Positions 9,462-37,397 of a stretch of DNA of 64,000 nucleotides are shown one piece after another. A program made the translations under genes and the position numbers. Each line of letters starts with the position of its first letter. Positions within the stretch are counted from its first letter, which is position 1. Below the pieces are notes generated by a model. The model was given only the letters and a program-made list of their open reading frames with translations, ran no database searches and was not told the DNA's origin. Source of the DNA: Candidatus Woesearchaeota archaeon (GTDB taxonomy: Archaea > Nanobdellota > Nanobdellia > Woesearchaeales > WJIZ01); contig WJIZ01000041.1 of the NCBI GenBank assembly GCA_014729995.1, positions 10,584-74,583 of the forward strand, written 5' to 3'.

Positions 9462-10458
9462 AGAATTAAGCGAATGCTGGAATATCTTGCCGAAAGTTTC
9501 TAGAAGCTTCTCTTTATGCATAAAACTACTGCCTCATCCCTTGGATGATCGGATGATGCTTTCTTATCTTATCTTCCGGATTGTGGATACAATAGAGGAT
9601 TCTGAAATAAAAAAACAGCAAAAAAAAAGATTATTTGATCTTTTTCTGGATACTCTCTCGCAGCCCCGCTTTCTTTCATATCAGTCAAAGAAATGCAGCT
9701 CTGCGCTTCTTCAGAATCTCACCTATTCATACGAGGAGATACTATTAAGAAATCTTGATGCAGTATTAAAAGTATATTTTGCCACTCCCGAAAAAGAGAG
9801 AACCTCAATCCTCAGGAGGGCAAAAGAAATGGCTGAAGGAATGTATAAATTCCAGACAAAAACGATCAATACCTTTGATGAACAGAATGAATACTGCTAT
9901 TATGCCGCGGGTCTTGTCGGATATTTATTTAACGACTTATTCTTTTATAATAACATACTCAGCAAAAAGCAAGCAGGCCGCCTGATAGAGCATGCTAAAA
10001 GATATGGATTAGCATTGCAGAAAGTGAATATAATAAGGGATATCGTAAACGATGCTCCAGATAGAAAATATTGGCCGATAAAACTGCTCAAAAAGTATAA
10101 TTTGGATTATAAAAGCCTTCTTCTCACAAAAAACAGGAAGAAAGCAGTAAATGTCCTTAATGAAATGATTAAGGATGCCTTGCCTTTCTTGGACAGCGGC
10201 ATTGATTATGTTAAGGCTTTGCCCAGAAATGCCTTGAAAGTCAGGGTTTTTTGTCTTATCCCTTTATTTATGGCAGTACAGAACTTTGTCAAATGTATTA
10301 ACAACAGGAATGTCTTTGAAAAAAAAGTAAAGCTTACCAGGCCTTCGGTGGCTGCAATAGTAAGAAAATCCTATCTCTGTGGGTATTCAAATTTCCTTTT
10401 GGATAAATGGTATAATAAAAATATGAAGAAAGCTAGGGCATCATTTGCTCCTGCTTAA
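9451..10458 (+). CDS. squalene/phytoene synthase family (head-to-head prenyl condensing enzyme)
   Basis: SRSF motif, YCYYAAGLVG, and NIIRDIVNDAPDRKYWP. Confidence 0.75.
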   Translation: MKNKELSECWNILPKVSRSFSLCIKLLPHPLDDRMMLSYLIFRIVDTIEDSEIKKQQKKRLFDLFLDTLSQPRFLSYQSKKCSSALLQNLTYSYEEILLRNLDAVLKVYFATPEKERTSILRRAKEMAEGMYKFQTKTINTFDEQNEYCYYAAGLVGYLFNDLFFYNNILSKKQAGRLIEHAKRYGLALQKVNIIRDIVNDAPDRKYWPIKLLKKYNLDYKSLLLTKNRKKAVNVLNEMIKDALPFLDSGIDYVKALPRNALKVRVFCLIPLFMAVQNFVKCINNRNVFEKKVKLTRPSVAAIVRKSYLCGYSNFLLDKWYNKNMKKARASFAPA

Positions 10459-11520
10459 CATAAAATCCGCAAAGCCATAAAAGAATTCAAGCGCTTTCTT
10501 GTTGATCTTCGCATCTTTCAGTTCTCTTTTTCCCTTTTCTATTTTTTTCTTTGCCAAATTCTGCACATACTCCAGCGCTCCTGTTTCTTCCATAGCTTTA
10601 ACAACCTTGTCAATCTGTTCTGAAGAAGCATCCTCCTTTCCCAAGACTTTTTTTATCTCTTCTTGCTGCTCCTCACCAGAATTCTCCAGCGCCTTTATTA
10701 TCAGCAAAGTTCTTTTCCCTTTCCTTATATCCTCGCCATACTTATTTTTATGCTCTTTATTAACAGATAATATATCATCCTGCAGTTGAAAAGCAGATGC
10801 TGCTGATTTCGCATATGAGCTAAGTGCTTTAAGCTCCTTTCCTCTAGCATTTCCTAACTTTGCTCCAATCATAATAGAGCTCAAAAAAAGCTCTCCGGTC
10901 TTTTTCCAGCTCATGCTCATGTAGTCTTTTTCATTTATGTCCCTTCTCTCGAAATAATTGTCCATGATCTGGCCCTCATTCACAATCATATAGCATTCAT
11001 TGTAAATTTCCAGCGCTTCCTTAACGCAGCTCTCTCGGAATTCTGAATCAAGGATACATTCGCAGCCCATGGTGAACAGGATATTGCCGCCGCATATTGC
11101 ATTAGCAACAGCAAACCTGGAAGACTCTTTGCTGAATAATGCTCCTTCATACTGCATTTCCCTGTTTTTATCAATGAAATAGTCTCTGAATTTCTTATGC
11201 ATTGTCGGGCTATCCCTCCTATATTCATCTTCATCCATGACATCATCATGAACTAATGTAGCACTATGCAAAAATTCAACACACAAACCTGCCTTTTTTA
11301 TTCTTCCATCAATTTTTCCGGTAACAGCAAAATATCCCATAATCAAGGCAATTGGCCTGAGCCTTTTCCCGCCGCATAGGACATAATCCTTCATATATGA
11401 ATAGCTTAATCTAATGAATTCATCAGAGCAATTTTTGATTCTACCATCTAAATAAAGATTTAATTCACTGTCAACAATTTTTCTGTATTTTTCCAGCACA
11501 GATTTAAATGACATTTTCAA
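10441..11520 (-). CDS. idsA: polyprenyl (geranylgeranyl) diphosphate synthase
   Basis: GGKRLRP, first DDxxD in LVHDDVMDEDEYRR, second in LQDDILS. Confidence 0.8.
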   Translation of the reverse strand: MKMSFKSVLEKYRKIVDSELNLYLDGRIKNCSDEFIRLSYSYMKDYVLCGGKRLRPIALIMGYFAVTGKIDGRIKKAGLCVEFLHSATLVHDDVMDEDEYRRDSPTMHKKFRDYFIDKNREMQYEGALFSKESSRFAVANAICGGNILFTMGCECILDSEFRESCVKEALEIYNECYMIVNEGQIMDNYFERRDINEKDYMSMSWKKTGELFLSSIMIGAKLGNARGKELKALSSYAKSAASAFQLQDDILSVNKEHKNKYGEDIRKGKRTLLIIKALENSGEEQQEEIKKVLGKEDASSEQIDKVVKAMEETGALEYVQNLAKKKIEKGKRELKDAKINKKALEFFYGFADFMLSRSK

Positions 11521-13135
11521 TACGTTGGACTACTTTGCTGATTATTCTGTCAGGAGTGCTTGCTCCTGCCGTTATACCAATATTTTCCTTGTCAAAAAAC
11601 CATTCGCTCCTTATCTCTTTTTCTGTTTCTATATGCCTTGTTTCGCAGTACTGCGAGCATGTCTCTTTTAGTCTTTTGGTATTGGAGCTTATCTTGCCTC
11701 CTATCACAATCATTATGTGGCTCTTCTTTGCCAGGGCTATAGCACTCTCCTGCCGGTTCTTTGTTGCTGCACAAATAGTATCGATTACTCTAATATCCTT
11801 CCCCCTTTTTTTCAAGGCATTAGAAATTTCACTGAATTTCTCAACAGAGCGAGTAGTCTGAGATACAACAGTTGAGCATTCTAAATCCTGTTTGTCAATA
11901 TTTTGTATATCACTGATTATACTGTAATTATGAAGATTTCCCGCTATTCCCTTGACCTCAGTGTGCTCTTCATCTCCAAAAATCAATATCTTTCTGCCTT
12001 TCTTTTCCTCTTTCTTGGTAATTTCATGCACTTTCTTCACAAGGGGGCAGGTAAGGTCGATAACTTTAAGGCCTTTACTCTTGATATCCTGTATCCTGCT
12101 GTCTTTTATCCCGTGTGCAGTTATGACAATTATGCCTTTGTCAATGCCCCTGTAAGCATCTATCATGCTGACCCCTTGCTCCTCAAGCTCTTTGACAACA
12201 GTGGGATTGTTGATCAGATTGCCCAGAACATAAACTCCTTTAGTCTTATCGAGCTTATTTATTTCATCAATCGCTCTCTTGACCCCAAAACAAAATCCCA
12301 TCTCATGGGCAAGCTCAATTTTTTTATTCAAAGTTGAAGACAGATAAGCTTTGGGATATTTCTGCTTTGCTTTTTCATAAATTTCTTCTGCCTTTTCCTC
12401 TTCTAAAAACAAGCCAAAAACCGAGCTCCCGCTTCCCGTCAATAGAGAATCCGGGCCAAGTTCTTTTCTAATCTTTTCCAAACCGGAATATTTGCTGGAG
12501 CTACTAAATTCAAAATCATTATGCAGATACTGTAAATCATAATCCTTTATGAATTTTTCAGAACTGTTGCTTTTTCCAGTCTTAGAATAATCAAGCGCTG
12601 AATAAGCTTCTTTTGTGCTCACATGAATGCCCGGATAAACCAAAACAGCATAGTGCTTCTCCAAGTCCTTTAGCTTCTCTACTTTCTCTCCCCTGCCTTT
12701 CCCTATGCATGTCCCCCCCAATATATGAAAAGGGACGTCCATGCCTATCTCTTTTCCCAGGCTGGCAAGCTTTTTCTTTGGCAGTTTCAGGCCCCAGAGA
12801 ACATTCAGCCCCTTAAGCACAGCTGCAGCATTGGAACTTCCTCCTGAAAGCCCCGCACCAACAGGAATATTCTTTTTGAGCTTTATCTCAACACCTTTTT
12901 CAACATTGAATTTCGCCTTCAGCAAGGAAGCAGCACGGTAAGCAATATTATCCTCATTCTCTAATTCCCTTGCACTGCATTCAAGCTTAATCCTGTCTGA
13001 ATCCAGCCTAACCAATTCAATCTCATCAAATAGGCTTATCTGCTGGAAAACAGTCTCTATATCATGGAATCCGTCATCCCGCTTTCCCAGTATATCCAGT
13101 GTAAGATTGATTTTAGCGTAGCTTTTAAGTTTCAT
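11504..13135 (-). CDS. ispEH: fused IspE-IspH: 4-diphosphocytidyl-2-C-methyl-D-erythritol kinase fused to 4-hydroxy-3-methylbut-2-enyl diphosphate reductase
   Basis: N-terminal GHMP kinase (KINLTLDILGKRDDGFHDIETVF, PVGAGLSGGSSNAAAV, GSGSSVFGLF). C-terminal LytB/IspH (GFCFGVKRAI, TCPLV, VVSQTT, ICAATKNRQ with the three cluster Cys). Confidence 0.85.
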   Translation of the reverse strand: MKLKSYAKINLTLDILGKRDDGFHDIETVFQQISLFDEIELVRLDSDRIKLECSARELENEDNIAYRAASLLKAKFNVEKGVEIKLKKNIPVGAGLSGGSSNAAAVLKGLNVLWGLKLPKKKLASLGKEIGMDVPFHILGGTCIGKGRGEKVEKLKDLEKHYAVLVYPGIHVSTKEAYSALDYSKTGKSNSSEKFIKDYDLQYLHNDFEFSSSSKYSGLEKIRKELGPDSLLTGSGSSVFGLFLEEEKAEEIYEKAKQKYPKAYLSSTLNKKIELAHEMGFCFGVKRAIDEINKLDKTKGVYVLGNLINNPTVVKELEEQGVSMIDAYRGIDKGIIVITAHGIKDSRIQDIKSKGLKVIDLTCPLVKKVHEITKKEEKKGRKILIFGDEEHTEVKGIAGNLHNYSIISDIQNIDKQDLECSTVVSQTTRSVEKFSEISNALKKRGKDIRVIDTICAATKNRQESAIALAKKSHIMIVIGGKISSNTKRLKETCSQYCETRHIETEKEIRSEWFFDKENIGITAGASTPDRIISKVVQRIENVI

Positions 13136-13184: not shown

Positions 13185-13373
13185 TTATTTCTTCACATTA
13201 GCTGCCTTTGGTCCCCTATCGCCCTGCTCAACATCAAATTCAACTTCATCATTATCATCCAGTGTAACGCCCTCTGGAAGGGCTGTCTGGTGGACAAAGT
13301 ATTCCTTTCCGTCTTCGCCGGCTATGAAGCCAAAACCCTTCATTCTGTTGAAGAATTTTACATTGCCTTTCAT
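13185..13373 (-). CDS. csp: cold-shock protein (CspA family, OB fold)
   Basis: KGNVKFFN..KGFGFI and the RNP motif FVHQTAL. Confidence 0.8.
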   Translation of the reverse strand: MKGNVKFFNRMKGFGFIAGEDGKEYFVHQTALPEGVTLDDNDEVEFDVEQGDRGPKAANVKK

Positions 13374-13463: not shown

Positions 13464-14630
13464 CTATTTTTTATTCAGGCTGACAACACAAAAGCACTGC
13501 ATTCCAAGCCCCTTGCCAAATGCGGAAAGGCCCTCCCCTGTTGTCGCGGTTACCCCTATATTCTCTTCGGAAATATCCAAGATCCCGGCAAGGCTTTCCT
13601 TTATCTTGTCCTCAATAGGCAGTATCCTGGGCCTGCTCCCCTCCAGCATTATCCCTATATTCCCTATAGAATATCCTCTCTCTTTCATTATTTTCAATAT
13701 TACTTTCAAATATTCCCTGCTGTCCTTAATCCCCTTTTCGCACATATCATCTGCATAATGCGAGACGCTTTTCTCACCCAGCCCCTGTGCAACAGCGTTG
13801 AACAATGCATGCAATATAACATCTCCGTCGGAATTGGCTTTGAAGCCTTTCTCGCCTTCAACAGCAAAGCCGCCAAGCGTCAGCTTCTTGTCTTTATCCT
13901 CCTCCTTTACAAACCTGTGGCTGTCTGAGCCGAATCCAATCCTCGAATTCTTGAGCAGTTTATTCGCGAATTCCAAATCATTAGGCAGCGTTATCTTGAT
14001 ATTTTCATAAGGGCATTCAATCATCTTGACCTTTTTACCCAGCCTTTCAACAAGTGAAGTGTCATCCGTACCAATATACTCTTCAGAAAAAGCCTTCTTA
14101 AAAGCCCTGATTGCAGTCCCATACCTTATCGTCTGCGGGGTCTGTACCTGCCACAATTTCTTCCTGTCGATTGTTCGAATAACAAACCCTTTCTCATCAA
14201 CTTCCTTGACAGTATCCCTTGCCTTAAAACCGACAACAGCTGCCTCGTATTTCTTAGCAGCTTCGATTGAGTCAATTATAGTTTTCTCGTCAATAAATGG
14301 GTTTACCCCATTATGAATAACAACGATGTCATCAGCCTTAGCATCTTCCATGGAAATCAGCCCATTATAAACAGAATTCTGCCTTTTCTCCCCTCCCAGA
14401 ACAACTTTTTCCACCTTATTCAATTGATATTTCTTCTTTAAAGCAGCTGTCTCATCTTTATCCTCCTGCCTGGCAACAAGTACGATTTTGTCTATAGCGC
14501 CCGTATCATTAAACACCTTTATTGTGCGGGCCAACACCGGCTCCTCATCCAATAAAAGAAATATTTTGTTCACCTCAGAATTCATCCTCTTGCCGATTCC
14601 GGCTGCAGTTATTAAGGCATAGTTAGTCAT
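13464..14630 (-). CDS. ispDF: bifunctional IspD/IspF: MEP cytidylyltransferase fused to MEcPP synthase
   Basis: N-terminal ITAAGIGKRM (IspD). C-terminal RIGFGSDSHRF..GHSDGDV (IspF). Confidence 0.85.
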   Translation of the reverse strand: MTNYALITAAGIGKRMNSEVNKIFLLLDEEPVLARTIKVFNDTGAIDKIVLVARQEDKDETAALKKKYQLNKVEKVVLGGEKRQNSVYNGLISMEDAKADDIVVIHNGVNPFIDEKTIIDSIEAAKKYEAAVVGFKARDTVKEVDEKGFVIRTIDRKKLWQVQTPQTIRYGTAIRAFKKAFSEEYIGTDDTSLVERLGKKVKMIECPYENIKITLPNDLEFANKLLKNSRIGFGSDSHRFVKEEDKDKKLTLGGFAVEGEKGFKANSDGDVILHALFNAVAQGLGEKSVSHYADDMCEKGIKDSREYLKVILKIMKERGYSIGNIGIMLEGSRPRILPIEDKIKESLAGILDISEENIGVTATTGEGLSAFGKGLGMQCFCVVSLNKK

Positions 14631-14862
14631 TTTTACCTTCTACCATCTTTTTTATTGCTTCCTCTACTTTAGCGCTCATATTGAAGCCATGATTTCTGCA
14701 AAATTTTCTAAACTTACTTGCAACACCTTTATCCAAGGTGAAATTAAGCCTTTCTTTTGTTCTTATCCTTCCTGTTTTTTCAAACTCTACCAGGGCATCC
14801 AGCATATCTTTATCCTGTTTTGCCACTCTGTCTGCAATTCTCATAAACCTACTTGATGACAT
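14623..14862 (-). CDS. ribbon-helix-helix (CopG-like) small protein, putative antitoxin partner of Doc
   Basis: 79 aa. RHH-like LNFTLDKGVASKFRKFCRNHGFNMSAKVEEAI. Overlaps the doc stop by 14 nt. Confidence 0.4.
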   Translation of the reverse strand: MSSSRFMRIADRVAKQDKDMLDALVEFEKTGRIRTKERLNFTLDKGVASKFRKFCRNHGFNMSAKVEEAIKKMVEGKND

Positions 14863-15193
14863 TTTTTATTTTCTCTTCTATTCTTTTTATGCTTTTTATT
14901 CTGTTTGTAGCAATATCAGCAACTAGCTTAACTACTTTATCTTTGTAAGCTTCATACCCTTCATATTCAATATAAGACTTAATCAACAATGCAGTTGTTC
15001 TTTTATTGCCGTCCTCGAAAACATGATCTAAATTTATAGCCCTGACCGCATAGGCTAATGCCTTAATCCAATTTTCTGTTCTTCTGGCGTAACTCAATGC
15101 AAAATCCAGGCTTTGCTCATTCCTAAAGCAAGTGTGCTCTTTAATTTTCTGGTTTAATGCAAAAATGTCTTTCTTTGTAAGGGTAAATTTCAT
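14849..15193 (-). CDS. doc: Doc (death-on-curing) / Fic-domain toxin
   Basis: Fic/Doc motif HVFEDGNKRTTALL. 114 aa. Confidence 0.7.
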   Translation of the reverse strand: MKFTLTKKDIFALNQKIKEHTCFRNEQSLDFALSYARRTENWIKALAYAVRAINLDHVFEDGNKRTTALLIKSYIEYEGYEAYKDKVVKLVADIATNRIKSIKRIEEKIKNVIK

Positions 15194-15221: not shown

Positions 15222-16352
15222 TTAAATTTTTCCTATATCCTTGACTTTTACTTTTCTGTTAATTTCCAATATCTCATCCAGCCCAGGATTTTTAATAATT
15301 TTATGTTCATCCATCGCTTCTTTAACCAATCTGGGAATATCCATAAATCCTATCTTGCCTTCCAGAAAGGCGCCGACAGCTATCTCATTTGCAGCATTCA
15401 TCACAGCAGGCATGCTCCCTCCCGTCTTGCCTGCAGAATAAGCATAAGAAAGACAGGGAAAACGAGATAAATCAGGCTTGGAAAAATTCAACTCACCTAC
15501 TTCAACCAGATCTAAACTCTTCAGATTATTAGATAAACGAAAAGGATGCGACAAAGCATATTGTATCGGAATCTTCATGTCAGGCCAGCCAAGCTGCGCT
15601 TTAACAGAAGTATCCTTAAACTCAACAAGTGAATGTATTATCGACTGAGGATGTATGACAACATCAATATTATCATAAGCAACACCAAAAAGATAGTGCG
15701 CCTCAATCACTTCAAGGCCCTTATTCATCAAACTAGCAGAGTCAATAGTTATCTTAGCCCCCATATTCCAGTTAGGGTGCTTAAGTGCATCAGCAGCTTT
15801 TAAGTTATTTATCTCCTCAATGCTTTTGTCCCTGAAAGCACCGCCTGAGCATGTAATAATCAATTTTTTAACATCCTCTTTCCTTTCTCCGTTCAGGCAT
15901 TGGAATATTGCACTATGTTCAGAATCAATAGGCTTCAGCTCTGCATTATTCTTCTCAACCAGCTCCATAACTATATCTCCTGCTGTTACTAAAGTCTCTT
16001 TATTCGCCAAAGCAATATTCTTCTTTGCCTTGATAGCTTCAACAGTCGGCTTTACTCCAATGCTTCCAACGAGAGAATTCAGAATAGTATCCGTGCTTTC
16101 CAGCTTAGCCAGTTTAATCAATCCATCCATGCCCGAATAAACAGGAATATCTAATGATACAGAATCAGCTTTATCTTTATCATAAACGCAGGCTGCTTCC
16201 GGCTTAAATTCCCCTATTTGTTTTTTTAATAAGGAAATATTGGAATTGCAAGCCAGTCCTTTAACCTTAAACTCAGAAGGATTATTTCTAATAACTTCCA
16301 GCGCCTGCGTTCCTATGCTTCCGGTGCTGCCTAAAATTGAAATATTCTTCAT
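15222..16352 (-). CDS. dxr: 1-deoxy-D-xylulose 5-phosphate reductoisomerase
   Basis: ILGSTGSIGTQALEV and the conserved C-terminal domain. Confidence 0.9.
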   Translation of the reverse strand: MKNISILGSTGSIGTQALEVIRNNPSEFKVKGLACNSNISLLKKQIGEFKPEAACVYDKDKADSVSLDIPVYSGMDGLIKLAKLESTDTILNSLVGSIGVKPTVEAIKAKKNIALANKETLVTAGDIVMELVEKNNAELKPIDSEHSAIFQCLNGERKEDVKKLIITCSGGAFRDKSIEEINNLKAADALKHPNWNMGAKITIDSASLMNKGLEVIEAHYLFGVAYDNIDVVIHPQSIIHSLVEFKDTSVKAQLGWPDMKIPIQYALSHPFRLSNNLKSLDLVEVGELNFSKPDLSRFPCLSYAYSAGKTGGSMPAVMNAANEIAVGAFLEGKIGFMDIPRLVKEAMDEHKIIKNPGLDEILEINRKVKVKDIGKI

Positions 16353-17386
16353 TTCATAATCTCCTTCAAAACCCTATCAACAACCTTATCCTTCCCAATC
16401 TTTCCTTTCTTCTCCCTATCAATATAGAGCAAAGCCCCATCCTTCCCCCCAACAACTCCAATATCAGATTCCTTAGCCTCTCCGGGCCCGTTAACAGCGC
16501 AGCCCATGACAGCAACTTTAACAGCTTTCTTAACATTGGCAGTTTTTCTTTCAATCTCCTCACATATAGAGGCAACGTCAATGTTAGACCTTGCGCAGGT
16601 CGGGCACGCAGTAACTTTAACTCCTCCTTGCCGCAAATCAAGGGCCTCTAAGATTTTCCAGCCCGCTTTTACTTCCTCTACAGGATCGCCGGAAAGCGAA
16701 ACCCGGATAGTATTCCCAATTCCCTCTTCAAGCAGGATTCCAATTCCAACAGCATTTTTGATTGTTCCGGTATAAACGCTTCCCGCTTCAGTAACTCCCA
16801 GATGCAGGGGATAGCTAAACCTTTTAGCAAAAATCCTGTTTGCCTCTATCATCTTATGCACATCACTTGCCTTTAGAGAAACAATAATATCAAAGAAATC
16901 ATTATCTTCTAATATCCTGATGTGGCGCGAAGCACTTTCCACCATGGCGCTGGCGGTTAACCCCAATTTTGCCTCAATATCCTTTTCAAGGCTTCCTAAA
17001 TTAACCCCTATGCGAATTGGAATCCTCCTTTCTTTGCAGGCCTTGGCAACTTCTTTTATCTTTTCCCTGCTCCCAATATTCCCTGGATTTATCCTTAACT
17101 TATCAGCATGCATGGCAGCTTCCAAGGCTATCCTGTAATCAAAATGCACATCTGCAGCCAGGGGGATATTTATCCCTTTCTTAATCTCCTTTAACGCTTT
17201 GGCGCTCTCCATATCCGGGGCCGAAACCCTTACAAGCTCGCATCCTGCTTTCTCAAGAGAACGAATCTGCCTTACAGTCGCTCCGGTATCCTTAGTATCT
17301 GTGTTTGTCATGCTCTGTACACTAATGGGAGCATTTCCCCCAATATGCATACTGCCAACTTTGATTTTTTTTGTTTTCATAGGCAA
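16349..17386 (-). CDS. ispG: HMBPP synthase IspG/GcpE
   Basis: GGNAPISVQSMTNT, CPTCAR, and MGCAVNGPGE. Confidence 0.9.
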   Translation of the reverse strand: MPMKTKKIKVGSMHIGGNAPISVQSMTNTDTKDTGATVRQIRSLEKAGCELVRVSAPDMESAKALKEIKKGINIPLAADVHFDYRIALEAAMHADKLRINPGNIGSREKIKEVAKACKERRIPIRIGVNLGSLEKDIEAKLGLTASAMVESASRHIRILEDNDFFDIIVSLKASDVHKMIEANRIFAKRFSYPLHLGVTEAGSVYTGTIKNAVGIGILLEEGIGNTIRVSLSGDPVEEVKAGWKILEALDLRQGGVKVTACPTCARSNIDVASICEEIERKTANVKKAVKVAVMGCAVNGPGEAKESDIGVVGGKDGALLYIDREKKGKIGKDKVVDRVLKEIMK

Positions 17387-17391
17387 GCTTT

Positions 17392-19257
17392 TTACCCAAC
17401 CATCTCCATTATCTTCCTCTTTATGCTTTCCTTATCCAGCCCGGCATCTTTTCTTAGCAGCTCAACATCGCCGTGCTCTATAAACCTATCCGGAATGCCC
17501 ATTCTCTCAACAGGCACATTAATGTGGTTATCCTGCAGAAGCTCAAGTACAGCTGAGCCAAACCCGGCCATAAGGGCATTTTCCTCGATAGTAAGCACTT
17601 TGCCGCATCTCCCGGCCTGCTCAATTATTCTTTTCTTGTCAAGCGGCTTGGCAAATCTCGCATTGACAACGCAGCAGTCAATCTTGTCCAGTTCCCCTGC
17701 AGCTTCCAGCGCAGTTGTAACCAGGGGGCCTATGCAGATAACAGCGATATCCTTTCCTTTCCTCAGAATCTTTGCCTTTCCACTCTTCACAGGCTTTGGA
17801 TTTTCATAAATCTTTCTTCCTTCTGCGCATCCCCTGGGATACCTTATGGCAGCAGGCCCCTCAAGTCCAGCAGCAGTCTTCAGCATCCTTCCCAGCTCAT
17901 TCTCGTCCTTTGGAGCCATAACAGTAAGATTAGGAATATTCCTCAAGAAAGAGATATCAAAAGCGCCATGATGGGTAGCGCCGTCCTCCCCGACCAATCC
18001 TGCCCTGTCAACAGCAAACACTACAGGAAGGTTCTGCAGGCATACATCATGTATTACCTGGTCATAGGCTCGCTGCAGGAAAGTTGAATATACAGCTACT
18101 ACAGGTTTGAAGCCCTGTGCAGCTAATCCCGCAGCAAAAGTTACTGCATGCTGCTCAGCAATTCCCACATCAAAAAAACGGTTAGGAAATCTTTCGGCAA
18201 ACTTATCAAGCCCTGTGCCTGTTGACATGGCCGCGGTTATAGCCACGAGCTTATCATCCTTAGCAGCCAGCCTGACAAGCATCCTGGAAAATGCCTCAGT
18301 ATAGCTTATCGCGCCCGCACACTTTATCTTCTCGCCATTAGCGACATTGAAGCTGCCGATGCCGTGGAACTTTGTTTTCTGTTCTTCAGCATATTGGTAG
18401 CCTTTTCCTTTTTTTGTACGCACGTGCAGCAATACAGGCCCCTTTATATTCTTGATATTATTAAGCGACTGTATCAGTTTCCCTATATCATGGCCGTCTA
18501 TAGGCCCGTAATACTTGAATCCGAGCTGCTTAAAAAGCATTCCCGGGCTGAATACCGCTCTCAAGGTGTCTTCAAATCCCAATGCTTTCTCTGCTGCCTG
18601 CTCACCCAGGGGAAAGCCTTTAAGTATATTCTCGAACCTTTTCCTTGTTTCATTGTATCTTGGGTTGGCAATCAGCTCACGCACATAATTGGAAAGCCCG
18701 CCGACATTCCTGCTGATGCTCATATCATTATCATTCAGGATAACAATAATGTTGCTCTTCAGATGCCCCGCATTATTCAATCCCTCAAAAGCCTCTCCTC
18801 CTGTAAGCGCGCCGTCTCCGATTACCGCAACAGCCTTATAATCCTCCCCCTTTAAATCGCGCGCCTTTGCAATTCCCAGTGCAGCGGAAATCGATGTTGA
18901 GCTGTGGCCTGTTCCGAAAGCATCATGCTCGCTCTCATCAATTCTTGGAAATCCTGATATTCCTTTATGCTGCCTCAATGTCTTAAATTTTCCTTTCCTT
19001 CCTGTCAGCAGCTTATGCGCATAACTCTGATGCCCTACATCCCACACTATCTTATCCTTAGGAGAATCAAATACATAATGCAGGGCGATTGCAAGCTCAA
19101 CCGCCCCAAGGCTTGGTGCAAGATGCCCCCCGTTTTTGGAAACAACATTGATTATCTCATGCCTTATTTCCCTGGCCAGCATGCCAAGCTGCTGCTTATT
19201 CAGCACCCTTAAGTCTGAGGGCTGCTTAACCATGCCTAAAAAATTAGTCTTCATCAT
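17392..19257 (-). CDS. dxs: 1-deoxy-D-xylulose-5-phosphate synthase
   Basis: GGHLAPSLGAVELAIALHYVFDSP.DKIVWDVGHQSYAHKLLTGR with TPP and transketolase domains. Confidence 0.9.
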   Translation of the reverse strand: MMKTNFLGMVKQPSDLRVLNKQQLGMLAREIRHEIINVVSKNGGHLAPSLGAVELAIALHYVFDSPKDKIVWDVGHQSYAHKLLTGRKGKFKTLRQHKGISGFPRIDESEHDAFGTGHSSTSISAALGIAKARDLKGEDYKAVAVIGDGALTGGEAFEGLNNAGHLKSNIIVILNDNDMSISRNVGGLSNYVRELIANPRYNETRKRFENILKGFPLGEQAAEKALGFEDTLRAVFSPGMLFKQLGFKYYGPIDGHDIGKLIQSLNNIKNIKGPVLLHVRTKKGKGYQYAEEQKTKFHGIGSFNVANGEKIKCAGAISYTEAFSRMLVRLAAKDDKLVAITAAMSTGTGLDKFAERFPNRFFDVGIAEQHAVTFAAGLAAQGFKPVVAVYSTFLQRAYDQVIHDVCLQNLPVVFAVDRAGLVGEDGATHHGAFDISFLRNIPNLTVMAPKDENELGRMLKTAAGLEGPAAIRYPRGCAEGRKIYENPKPVKSGKAKILRKGKDIAVICIGPLVTTALEAAGELDKIDCCVVNARFAKPLDKKRIIEQAGRCGKVLTIEENALMAGFGSAVLELLQDNHINVPVERMGIPDRFIEHGDVELLRKDAGLDKESIKRKIMEMVG

Positions 19258-27269: not shown

Positions 27270-27361
27270 GGGCCCGTAGTTCAGTGGCTACGGCTTTTGT
27301 CGCTATAAAGAACGTCTCCCTTACAAGGAGAAGGTCACCGGTTCAAGTCCGGTCGGGCCCA
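27270..27361 (+). tRNA. tRNA-Val(UAC) with an ~19-nt intron in the D-loop
   Basis: GGGCCCG/CGGGCCC acceptor. Anticodon arm TCTCC-CTTACAA-GGAGA. T-arm ACCGG-TTCAAGT-CCGGT. D-stem GTTC..GAAC separated by an oversized loop. Confidence 0.7.
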
Positions 27362-27366
27362 TTCTT

Positions 27367-27489
27367 GCGCCAGTTGTCCAGTGGTTAAGATACGGCCTTG
27401 CCACGCGCTAAGATTTCCTGCGGAAATCCGCTGGCTTTGCGCTAGCGCGCAAAGAGGCTGTGACCCGAGTTCGAATCTCGGCTGGCGCA
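27367..27489 (+). tRNA. tRNA-Gly(GCC) with a ~51-nt structured intron after position 37
   Basis: GCGCCAG/CTGGCGC acceptor. Anticodon stem CGGCC/GGCTG, loop TTGCCA + intron. The intron holds nested palindromes (CGCGCTAG..CTAGCGCG and GATTTCC..GGAAATC). T-arm CCGAG-TTCGAAT-CTCGG. Confidence 0.65.
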
Positions 27490-27540
27490 TACTTTTTTAA
27501 CAAATTTTATAAAGCACTTTCTTTTCTCAGTCCCTAATTT

Positions 27541-27660
27541 GGCCCCATAGCTCAGTCTGGTTAGAGCGCCGGTCTTATATGGCCACGTTCTAAGCATCTG
27601 GCTCGAAGAGAGCCGGAGGTCCGGAGTTCAAAATCATCGATGAAAGTCTCCGTGGGGCCA
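27541..27660 (+). tRNA. tRNA with two introns (anticodon-loop ~31 nt and T-loop ~14 nt). Anticodon reads UAU (Ile) if the first intron is canonical, so identity is uncertain.
   Basis: GGCCCCA/TGGGGCC acceptor. D-arm GCTC-AGTCTGGTTA-GAGC. Anticodon stem CCGGT/GCCGG. T-stem CGGAG/CTCCG enclosing a 21-nt loop TTCAAA[..]T. Confidence 0.6.
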
Positions 27661-27669
27661 TTTCTTATT

Positions 27670-27879
27670 ATGGTATCAAAAGAATTCTTAAAAGATGAGA
27701 TAAATAAGATTGAAAACACGTTTAGGCAGAAAGCAGAAGAAAAGCCCTACCTGATACATAAGGAAAAGAAATTCTACAAAGAGGCAAAAAGCATCTTGGA
27801 GAAAGATGCGGATATTAGCTCAGGCTATGTGAAAAACTGGCTAAGGGGCTATAGGAAAAGAAAATTTAGTAAGCTTTAA
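27670..27879 (+). CDS. hypothetical small basic protein
   Basis: Track ORF 27640..27879 overlaps the tRNA 3' end, so an internal ATG at 27670 was preferred. No recognisable domain. Confidence 0.25.
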   Translation: MVSKEFLKDEINKIENTFRQKAEEKPYLIHKEKKFYKEAKSILEKDADISSGYVKNWLRGYRKRKFSKL

Positions 27880-27905
27880 AAATCCACTAAATTCTCTAAC
27901 TCTAA

Positions 27906-27980
27906 GCTCCCATGGTGTAGTCCGGCCAATCATTCCGGCTTTTCGAGCCGAAGACGTGGGTTCAAATCCCGCTGGGAGCA
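27906..27980 (+). tRNA. tRNA-Glu(UUC), intron-less
   Basis: GCTCCCA/TGGGAGC acceptor. D-arm TGGTGTAGTCCGGCCAATCAT typical of archaeal Glu/Gln. Anticodon loop TTTTCGA. T-arm GTGGG-TTCAAAT-CCCGC. Confidence 0.65.
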
Positions 27981-32136: not shown

Positions 32137-32287
32137 AATAAATTTCCAAAAATGCTATCGCCCCCAATTTTGTTTTAGATATACCAATTCTAAAAAACAC
32201 AAACAAATAGGCGATTTAATGCGTACTTGATACAGCTATCAAGTACAGGAAGGAAACAATCCCGACAATTTTAATTGCGACTATTAA

Positions 32288-33795
<1,508 letters not shown>

Positions 33796-34004: not shown

Positions 34005-34102
34005 GGGCCCGTAGCTCAATGGTATTTCAAGTTATGCTTGAAACATGAAAGAGCGTCGCCCTTGCAAGGCGGAGGTTTCGGGTTCAAATCCCGACGGGTC
34101 CA
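34005..34102 (+). tRNA. tRNA-Ala(UGC) in the 16S-23S spacer, with a ~26-nt insert in the D-loop
   Basis: GGGCCCG/CGGGTCC acceptor. D-stem GCTC..GAGC around a 33-nt loop. Anticodon arm TCGCC-CTTGCAA-GGCGG. T-arm TCGGG-TTCAAAT-CCCGA. Confidence 0.7.
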
Positions 34103-34279
34103 TATGCCTATGCAACATTTTACAAAATGTTGCATATTTGCTTCAGCCCAAATTGGCATATATCATATTCATTTTATCATAAATCATCGTCAATGCATAT
34201 TGGCGATGGTTCGGACGAGACGCCTTCTTTCCTGGGAGGTAGAATATCTATTCATGTTGATGAGGCCATGCATTAAAGT

Positions 34280-37230
<2,951 letters not shown>

Positions 37231-37397
37231 TAACTTAAATGCATGGCCTTTTCTTTTTTATTCTTTGGGTTAATAAGATATTTTAGATTGTGGTTATAGC
37301 TTCAGCTCTATTCTGTCAAACATGCTTTCGCAGCAGGTTAAGTAACCTGGTATTTCATTTCCAAAACCCTTAAAAACGATTCCATTTTCTTTTTTTT

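Follow-up and report, generated by a model that had tools for sequence, protein, structure and literature searches.

The bifunctional IspDF proteins, known for instance from Campylobacter jejuni (NF006899), are natural fusions of a cytidylyltransferase with a cyclodiphosphate synthase and unite two non-consecutive steps of the pathway via methylerythritol phosphate (MEP); present in a subset of organisms, they are widespread and biochemically characterised. IspH is likewise found in 'Rosetta stone' hybrids with the product of a neighbouring gene, the catalogued partners being RPS1 (~447 species), UbiA (~47), CMP kinase, helicase, FBPase and phosphorylase, with IspE not among them (Rao et al., 2015; PMC4746011). 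For Woesearchaeota, possession of the MEP pathway has already been published (PMC8204110; PMC8421398), and the clusters described for this lineage comprise co-located bacterial-type genes and a fused ispD/F and lack geranylgeranylglyceryl phosphate (GGGP) synthase (Castelle and Banfield, 2018, as cited in later work; PMC8204110; PMC8421398). Here, a window of 64,000 nucleotides from contig WJIZ01000041.1 of a Candidatus Woesearchaeota archaeon was analysed, in which a cluster of this kind contains a gene, ispEH, whose product P0001 carries both IspE, the 4-diphosphocytidyl-2-C-methyl-D-erythritol (CDP-ME) kinase, and IspH, the 4-hydroxy-3-methylbut-2-enyl diphosphate (HMBPP) reductase. In contrast to IspDF, the uncharacterised IspE-IspH fusion is limited to a single small clade, and unlike in the known IspH hybrids the partner is IspE, which is placed N-terminally of IspH without a linker. 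Among bifunctional MEP enzymes, a class already known, it is a real and rare variant that has apparently not been described before. With a probability of about 0.8, we read P0001 as a bifunctional enzyme that arose by a single fusion of abutting ispE and ispH genes, was later lost in part and spread to bacteria, and whose benefit, if any, would most likely be 1:1 co-production of its two activities.

The fused reading frame and its junction

The gene ispEH occupies positions 11504-13135 of the minus strand as a single open reading frame (ORF) of 543 amino acids, with the ATG at 13133-13135 and the stop codon at 11504-11506, and the plus strand across the same interval contains many stops and no open frame. 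NCBIfam models, residue mapping and fold matches delimit an IspE module (12323-13135, minus strand, residues 1-271) and an IspH module (11507-12322, minus strand, residues 272-543). Pfam recognised GHMP_kinases_N at residues 63-141, GHMP_kinases_C at residues 209-261 and, over its entire length, LYTB at residues 273-540 (model positions 1-267 of 267, E = 2.2e-86). The equivalog cut-offs were passed for both functions, namely by TIGR00154 (ispE) with 244.8 bits against 138.7 over residues 2-260 and by TIGR00216 (ispH) with 269.1 bits against 187.85 over residues 272-541, the best-scoring model for the IspH half being the IspH/S1 model NF000907 with 298.7 bits. The initial annotation, made from the letters of the sequence, had proposed a single polypeptide that fuses the non-consecutive steps 4 and 7, and this is borne out by one stop-free ORF passing both cut-offs; the motifs quoted at the time (KINLTLD, DGFHDIETVF, PVGAGLSGGSSNAAAV, GSGSSVFGLF, GFCFGVKRAI, VVSQTT and ICAATKNRQ) are all present in the translation.

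The architecture had also been called unusual, and the database searches agree. A HMMER search of 1.84 billion representatives at 50% identity (~15 billion proteins) returned two that cover both halves compared to 6290 matches at E <= 1e-30, a ranking that any other fusion of the two enzymes with recognisable halves should top. In a survey of 301 genomes sampled from the order of the window, 83 of which had MEP matches, the fused frame was present in six (that of the window, the congener G023, G009, G187, G096 and, as HAD-IspE-IspH, G041). A word-indexed search of 5.8 billion proteins yielded 25 other full-length clusters with GHMP and LYTB domains at 45-65% identity. Literature searches found no description of an IspE-IspH fusion, two papers on the evolution of the MEP pathway mentioning only IspDF; it is mentioned neither in the main texts of PMC8204110 and PMC8421398 nor in those parts of their supplements that were searched, and the searched parts of the supplements of Castelle et al. 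(2021; PMC8204110) hold no LYTB or GHMP entries. As for database annotation, one member is named with both functions by JGI, and members are named with one or the other by NCBI. The ESM Atlas contains clusters with LYTB and S1 and with Cytidylate_kin and LYTB.

The two modules meet at 12296-12340 of the minus strand (residues 266-280), where Y-L-S-S-T-L-N-K runs directly into K-I-E-L-A-H-E-M-G, with neither a linker nor an initiator methionine for IspH. The DNA of this junction includes a run of seven adenines (12319-12325), and separate ispE and ispH genes might have been merged by an error in the length of this homopolymer: one extra A in AATAAAAAAATT would create an in-frame TGA, and in most relatives the genes are indeed separate and overlapping. 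This explanation is very improbable, given that the junction is open in the same residue register in 12 further loci from JGI, NCBI and GTDB genomes, that the fragment from the nearest relative, P0019, crosses it as well, and that a lysine, in place of the methionine of unfused genes, stands where a start codon of the IspH part would be expected. The fusion is genuine and not an assembly artefact, because the same open junction is found with different DNA in altogether 13 independently assembled loci of archaea and bacteria, most of which lack a homopolymer (e.g., AAT AAA CGA ATC or AAC CCG CGG ATT). The full-length fused clusters measure 538-560 amino acids, apart from two longer ones of 744-762 amino acids with an added HAD domain, and the length of the junction is nearly invariant, with one indel in 26 sequences. 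Three fragments from contig ends likewise span the junction, and P0019 shares 68% identity over the IspH part.

Conserved residues and predicted structure

Alignment with E. coli IspE (1oj4/8qcc) placed K8, N10, H24, the glycine-rich ATP loop P91-A104 (PVGAGLSGGSSNAA), D133 and the GSGS motif G234-S237 in the IspE half, and all of these are invariant in 26 fused homologues. In E. coli IspE, we take K10 and D141 to be catalytic, Asn12 and His26 to be substrate-binding, and the two glycine-containing elements to be the phosphate loop and GHMP motif 3. In the IspH half, mapped on 3dnf/4h4c, the [4Fe-4S] cysteines C282, C363 and C455 correspond to C12, C96 and C197 of the E. coli enzyme, and each of the three was found in every one of 149 IspH domains aligned. 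Also in place are H341, H391, E393, T427/T428, S483/S484/N485 and S526, the equivalents of the E. coli residues H74, H124, E126, T167, S225/S226/N227 and S269 of diphosphate binding and proton relay. The catalytic residues of IspH are invariant or nearly so in the 26 fused homologues and the 149 IspH domains, save for one position: P0001 has Asn309 where E. coli IspH has His41 and A. aeolicus IspH has His42, so that the conserved histidine is lacking. Histidine occupies this column in 145 of the 149 domains, and asparagine is also found in P0019 and in P0004.

The review PMC9745026 describes His41 of IspH as substrate-binding and essential. One half of P0001, most plausibly the IspH half with its Asn309, might therefore be catalytically dead and serve a structural or regulatory role only. 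We consider this improbable: P0001 holds the sole LYTB domain of a 97.9%-complete genome with intact dxs, dxr, ispDF and ispG, and the three cluster cysteines are retained together with all the other mapped IspH residues. Moreover, asparagine should still be able to donate a hydrogen bond to the diphosphate, and it is kept in P0019 and P0004, which display no other decay.

The comparison with structurally known monofunctional enzymes, i.e., IspE from E. coli (1OJ4/8QCC) and T. thermophilus (1UEK) and IspH from A. aeolicus (3DNF) and E. coli (3KE8/4H4C), revealed the same folds at 30-38% identity and shared catalytic residues except at the His41 position; P0001 differs from them in the covalent link between its halves, in the Asn at the His41 position and in the missing initiator methionine of the IspH part. 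An AlphaFold2 model of P0001 built from the 26-sequence alignment reached a mean predicted local distance difference test (pLDDT) score of 91.7 and a predicted template modelling (pTM) score of 0.87. Its IspE half adopts the two-domain fold of GHMP kinases (TM-score by target 0.85-0.87, root-mean-square deviation (rmsd) 2.2-2.8, versus 1uek, 1oj4 and 8qc7) and its IspH half the trefoil three-domain fold (TM-score by target 0.80-0.82 versus 3ke8, 3f7t, 3szu and 3dnf). At the junction, where pLDDT is 95, a turn of three residues connects the strand 263-268 to the strand 272-275, such that the last strand of IspE leads into the first strand of IspH. Since a pTM of 0.87 is high for two domains of 270 residues, the model implies a confidently predicted, fixed placement of the two ~270-residue domains relative to each other.

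No structure spanning both halves was found in the PDB, the AlphaFold database (AFDB) clusters or the ESM Atlas, where matches covered one half at a time. AFDB entries named 'Multifunctional fusion protein' were tried as IspE-IspH candidates and rejected, both halves aligning only at rmsd >20 Å; they are most likely Cmk-IspH(-S1), because the ESM Atlas cluster of the same name has Cytidylate_kin and LYTB domains. Met279 (12299-12301 of the window) stands next to the first cluster cysteine and is methionine in about 20 of the 26 fused proteins; at this position, Ser, Ala, His or Tyr predominate in unfused relatives, where Met is rare. It may be a marker of the clade or an adaptation of the domain interface.

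Origin and later history of the fusion

Among the loci examined, the commonest arrangement is ispE directly followed by ispH, and in 19 loci the two genes abut or overlap in another frame. In all 19 of these adjacent pairs, IspE ends in F-V-x-L-T-K-T-I-x-stop and IspH begins with M-K/R-I-x-x-A-K-x-x-G-F-C-F-G-V, often with an overlap of the ATGA type. The fused consensus, L-T-x-T-I-N-K followed immediately by K/R-I-x-x-A-x-x-M-G-F-C, lacks both a linker and the methionine, and the junction of the congener, AAT AAA AGA ATT, equals AAT AAA TGA / ATG AGA ATT minus TG. From these sequences we infer that the fusion originated by loss of the ispE stop and the ispH start within the overlap, other small indels being possible as well. 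In four further loci (L011, L012, L116 and L117, from G135, G216, G065 and G267), only one or two stops and 0-7 sense codons separate ispE from ispH within a single reading frame; these are either one step short of fusion or interrupted fused genes.

A maximum-likelihood tree groups the fused IspH domains, 29 in all, in a single clade (ultrafast bootstrap 95, SH-aLRT 97), because of which a single origin of the fusion is likely. In the IspE tree, 26 of the 27 fused halves fall into one clade (100/98) that also contains four unfused IspEs, from G149, G276 and G219 of the window's family and from G073. Constraining the fused halves and the four unfused IspEs together was not rejected (p-AU 0.145), whereas constraining the fused halves alone was (p-AU 0.014), the groups for these approximately unbiased tests having been defined after a first tree was seen. 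In G149, G276 and G219, ispE is followed directly, with an ATGA-type overlap, by a geranylgeranyl diphosphate (GGPP) synthase gene, and a divergent ispH (35-36% identity) lies on another contig; in G073, no GGPP synthase gene follows ispE and ispH (44% identity) is again on another contig. The IspH half was probably lost secondarily in these relatives, since their unfused IspEs nest within the fused clade while ispH is located elsewhere. The pairwise identities of the IspE and IspH halves co-vary (r = 0.81 over 325 pairs), in line with a history common to both halves. All fused IspEs and 61 of the 62 IspEs of the order belong to one clade (88/91) adjoining Bacillota IspE, in agreement with the published Firmicutes origin of the MEP genes of this lineage (PMC8421398).

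Further fusions of neighbouring genes were observed in the order. An in-frame fusion of IspH with the downstream polyprenyl diphosphate synthase, of 553-660 amino acids, is encoded at L109:28-1923 (minus strand), L115:1501-3159 (plus) and L116:735-2714 (minus) and probably also in L129 and L131, i.e., in at least three genomes. It joins consecutive steps, the production of isopentenyl diphosphate (IPP) and dimethylallyl diphosphate (DMAPP) and chain elongation; no description of it was found, and it may be functionally more interesting than IspE-IspH. A triple fusion of a HAD-family hydrolase with IspE and IspH (744-768 amino acids) occurs in one sub-lineage (L010:1495-3798, minus strand; P0021; P0028), and an HD domain is fused to IspE in a 449-residue protein (L115:161-1507, plus strand).

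Six fused proteins (P0016, P0017, P0022, P0023, P0025 and P0026) constitute a subclade nested within the otherwise archaeal fused clade, and of these P0016 and P0026 are named Spirochaetota by NCBI. The genome encoding P0025 measures 4.9 Mb and has a bacterial 16S fragment and the ribosomal protein bS6 but no eS28; its fused gene lies on a 351-kb contig in the order dxs-GGPPS-IDI2-DUF116-dxr-ispF-ispEH-ispG, with a squalene-hopene cyclase gene adjoining. The bacterial locus L017 (G301:C25) is an accessory isoprenoid cluster with squalene-hopene cyclase, type-2 IDI and DUF116 genes, and the cluster around the fused gene in L141 also includes a B12-radical-SAM gene. All 122 genomes surveyed from that bacterial order match the fused query, with separate native-type ispE (34-42% identity) and ispH (28-36%) among the matches listed. 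Four of the 122, with genome sizes of 4.7-4.9 Mb, possess the fused gene besides native ispE and ispH, and three more have a fused-type IspE; in two of these three, the locus ends no more than two bases from the match, which hints at truncation at a contig end. The four genomes carry second copies of dxr and ispG as well. The dxr of the bacterial operon shares 57-59% identity with archaeal dxr, compared to 46-47% for the native copy, whereas the operon ispG shares 40-42% with archaeal ispG, compared to 45-46% for the native copy. A transfer of the whole operon from archaeon to bacteria is thus only partly borne out, as dxr fits it and ispG does not. The simplest reading of the sequences is that an already fused gene was transferred from the archaeal lineage to bacteria within a mosaic cluster; this direction would follow from the nested position of the bacterial subclade in trees without an independent root.

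Operon context, host and functional interpretation

The fused gene belongs to a full MEP operon on the minus strand, in the order dxs-ispG-dxr-ispDF-csp-ispEH-GGPPS. It comprises dxs (17392-19257), ispG (16349-17386), dxr (15222-16352), a Fic/Doc-family ORF of 114 amino acids with an overlapping 79-residue ORF without Pfam match (14623-15193), ispDF (13464-14630), a bacterial-type cold-shock protein gene csp (13185-13373; CSD, E = 8.9e-21), ispEH and a polyprenyl (GGPP-type) diphosphate synthase gene (10441-11520), which the ORF finder delimits with a 17-nt overlap at the ispEH stop. As the initial annotation had stated, 13464-14630 encodes a second fusion of the operon, the 388-residue IspDF, identified by Pfam (IspD at residues 5-227, YgbB at 230-385) and NCBIfam. 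A gene of the squalene/phytoene synthase family and one for an FAD-dependent oxidoreductase lie on the opposite strand. A Sigma-70 promoter and terminator scan gave counts near those of shuffled controls and was uninformative for an archaeon.

Every MEP gene here is of bacterial type, and the operon includes the bacterial-type csp and Doc/Fic genes, as might be expected if the contig came from a bacterial contaminant. Such a source is barely conceivable, however, because the window also contains, on this very contig, archaeal rRNA genes and long tRNA genes as well as genes for an ATP-dependent DNA ligase and for an S13/S15 ribosomal protein of the archaeal/eukaryotic type, contamination of the genome is just 0.31%, and the MEP pathway is published for this clade. 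The host is an archaeon of the DPANN (Woesearchaeota type), since archaeal 16S (32287-33793) and 23S (34272-37240) rRNA genes, both on the plus strand, share the contig with ispEH, the 16S gene at a distance of 19 kb; NCBI lists relatives under the names Nanoarchaeota or Candidatus Woesearchaeota archaeon. Among the tRNA genes at 27270-27980 and 34005-34102, several are 98-123 nt long and probably intron-bearing, one lies in the 16S-23S spacer, and ARAGORN found only two of them.

The genome (G000; 1.33 Mb in 45 contigs) has one LYTB match and one IspE-type GHMP kinase, so that ispEH is its only ispE and its only ispH; its other GHMP kinase is a pantoate kinase in a CoA operon. Neither HMG-CoA reductase nor GGGP synthase (PcrB family) was found in this 97.9%-complete genome, the latter in accordance with Huang et al. 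(2021; PMC8421398). IPP, DMAPP and GGPP would be made by a bacterial route, yet the first committed enzyme of archaeal ether lipids is apparently missing. As the sole copy of both activities in a genome in which no HMG-CoA reductase was found, P0001 probably has to supply the GGPP synthase whose gene follows directly downstream. Its N-terminal domain would phosphorylate CDP-ME with ATP (step 4), and its C-terminal [4Fe-4S] domain would reduce HMBPP to IPP and DMAPP (step 7).

We propose that a lineage of the Woesearchaeota type inherited a Bacillota-like MEP operon in which ispE and ispH were abutting and translationally coupled, and that a small indel in the stop/start overlap, such as loss of TG from ATGA, removed the ispE stop together with the ispH start, leaving two folds joined strand-to-strand without a linker. 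The fused gene would then have been retained under purifying selection, acquiring an N-terminal HAD domain in one sub-lineage, while the IspH half was lost again in some relatives and the fused gene was passed to few bacteria as an accessory copy. Any benefit would most likely lie in the two domains being made in an obligatory 1:1 ratio and folding together into one compact unit.

Of the functions suggested initially, direct substrate channelling is unlikely, because steps 4 and 7 are not consecutive: the IspE product, the 2-phosphate of CDP-ME (CDP-MEP), must pass IspF and IspG before it reaches IspH. Co-regulation or a fixed 1:1 stoichiometry is plausible, although unfused neighbouring genes already provide co-regulation. 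The suggested link to a minimal genome stood in part, in that the host is a DPANN archaeon of 1.33 Mb, but the same fused gene also resides in bacteria of 4.7-4.9 Mb that have native ispE and ispH. The fusion was probably an event of operon compaction and not a new mechanism, and opportunistic fusion of neighbours is favoured over a specific requirement for linking IspE to IspH because the order also fuses IspH-GGPPS, HD-IspE and HAD-IspE-IspH.

A rigid IspE-IspH body might alternatively act as a scaffold that docks IspDF and perhaps IspG, bringing at least four MEP activities into one complex with local channelling or protection of the Fe-S cluster from oxygen. The single compact body predicted at pTM 0.87, the almost constant junction length, the Met279 typical of the fused clade and the encoding of IspDF in the same operon are consistent with such a metabolon. 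We nevertheless regard it as rather unlikely, as the steps are not consecutive, some lineages dropped the IspH half and kept the pathway, and different neighbours are fused elsewhere in the order. A co-folding run of IspDF and IspEH without controls scored 0.00, which is no evidence either way. IspD, IspE and IspF reportedly associate, both in E. coli and with Campylobacter IspDF (Gabrielsen et al., 2004), and channelling is reported not to have been found in Agrobacterium (Lherbet et al., 2006). As a speculation to which we give little credence, IspE-IspH could be a co-evolved rigid module that nucleates an MEP assembly with IspDF, in which two polypeptides would cover four of the pathway's seven steps, and compaction could have made the pathway portable, from a Bacillota-like source into Woesearchaeota, where it was fused, and out again to bacteria in a hopanoid-linked accessory cluster.

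Some observations weigh against the bifunctional, once-fused enzyme that we favour. Asn309 could mean that the reductase half of P0001 is impaired or altered, as it replaces a residue reviewed as essential (PMC9745026), and the A7 run of the window itself could in principle hide a frameshift. The C-termini of unfused IspEs vary by one or two residues, which precludes exact reconstruction of the mutation at the junction. In the free tree, the IspE half of the archaeal fused protein P0024 stands outside the fused clade, given which a second origin of the fusion is possible. Finally, the predicted packing of the domains has pTM as its sole measure, and we infer the bifunctional activity and the translation as one polypeptide from the gene itself.

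Natural fusions serve as 'Rosetta stones' of coupling, be it physical or functional, and pathway engineering takes them as templates; in the MEP pathway, an antibiotic target as well as a chassis for terpenoid production, IspH is one of the Fe-S bottleneck enzymes. The biological consequence of the fusion itself is likely modest. A kinase-reductase fusion maintained over ~45% sequence divergence and in two domains of life nonetheless offers a natural test case for the question whether IspH gains in stability, or the pathway in flux, when IspH is tethered to a second enzyme of the pathway. In one string of genes, the loss of a stop and a start, reversals of the resulting fusion, further fusions (HAD-IspE-IspH, IspH-GGPPS and HD-IspE) and an apparent export from archaeon to bacterium can be traced, and together they illustrate clearly how, in reduced genomes, the compaction of an operon gives rise to multidomain enzymes.

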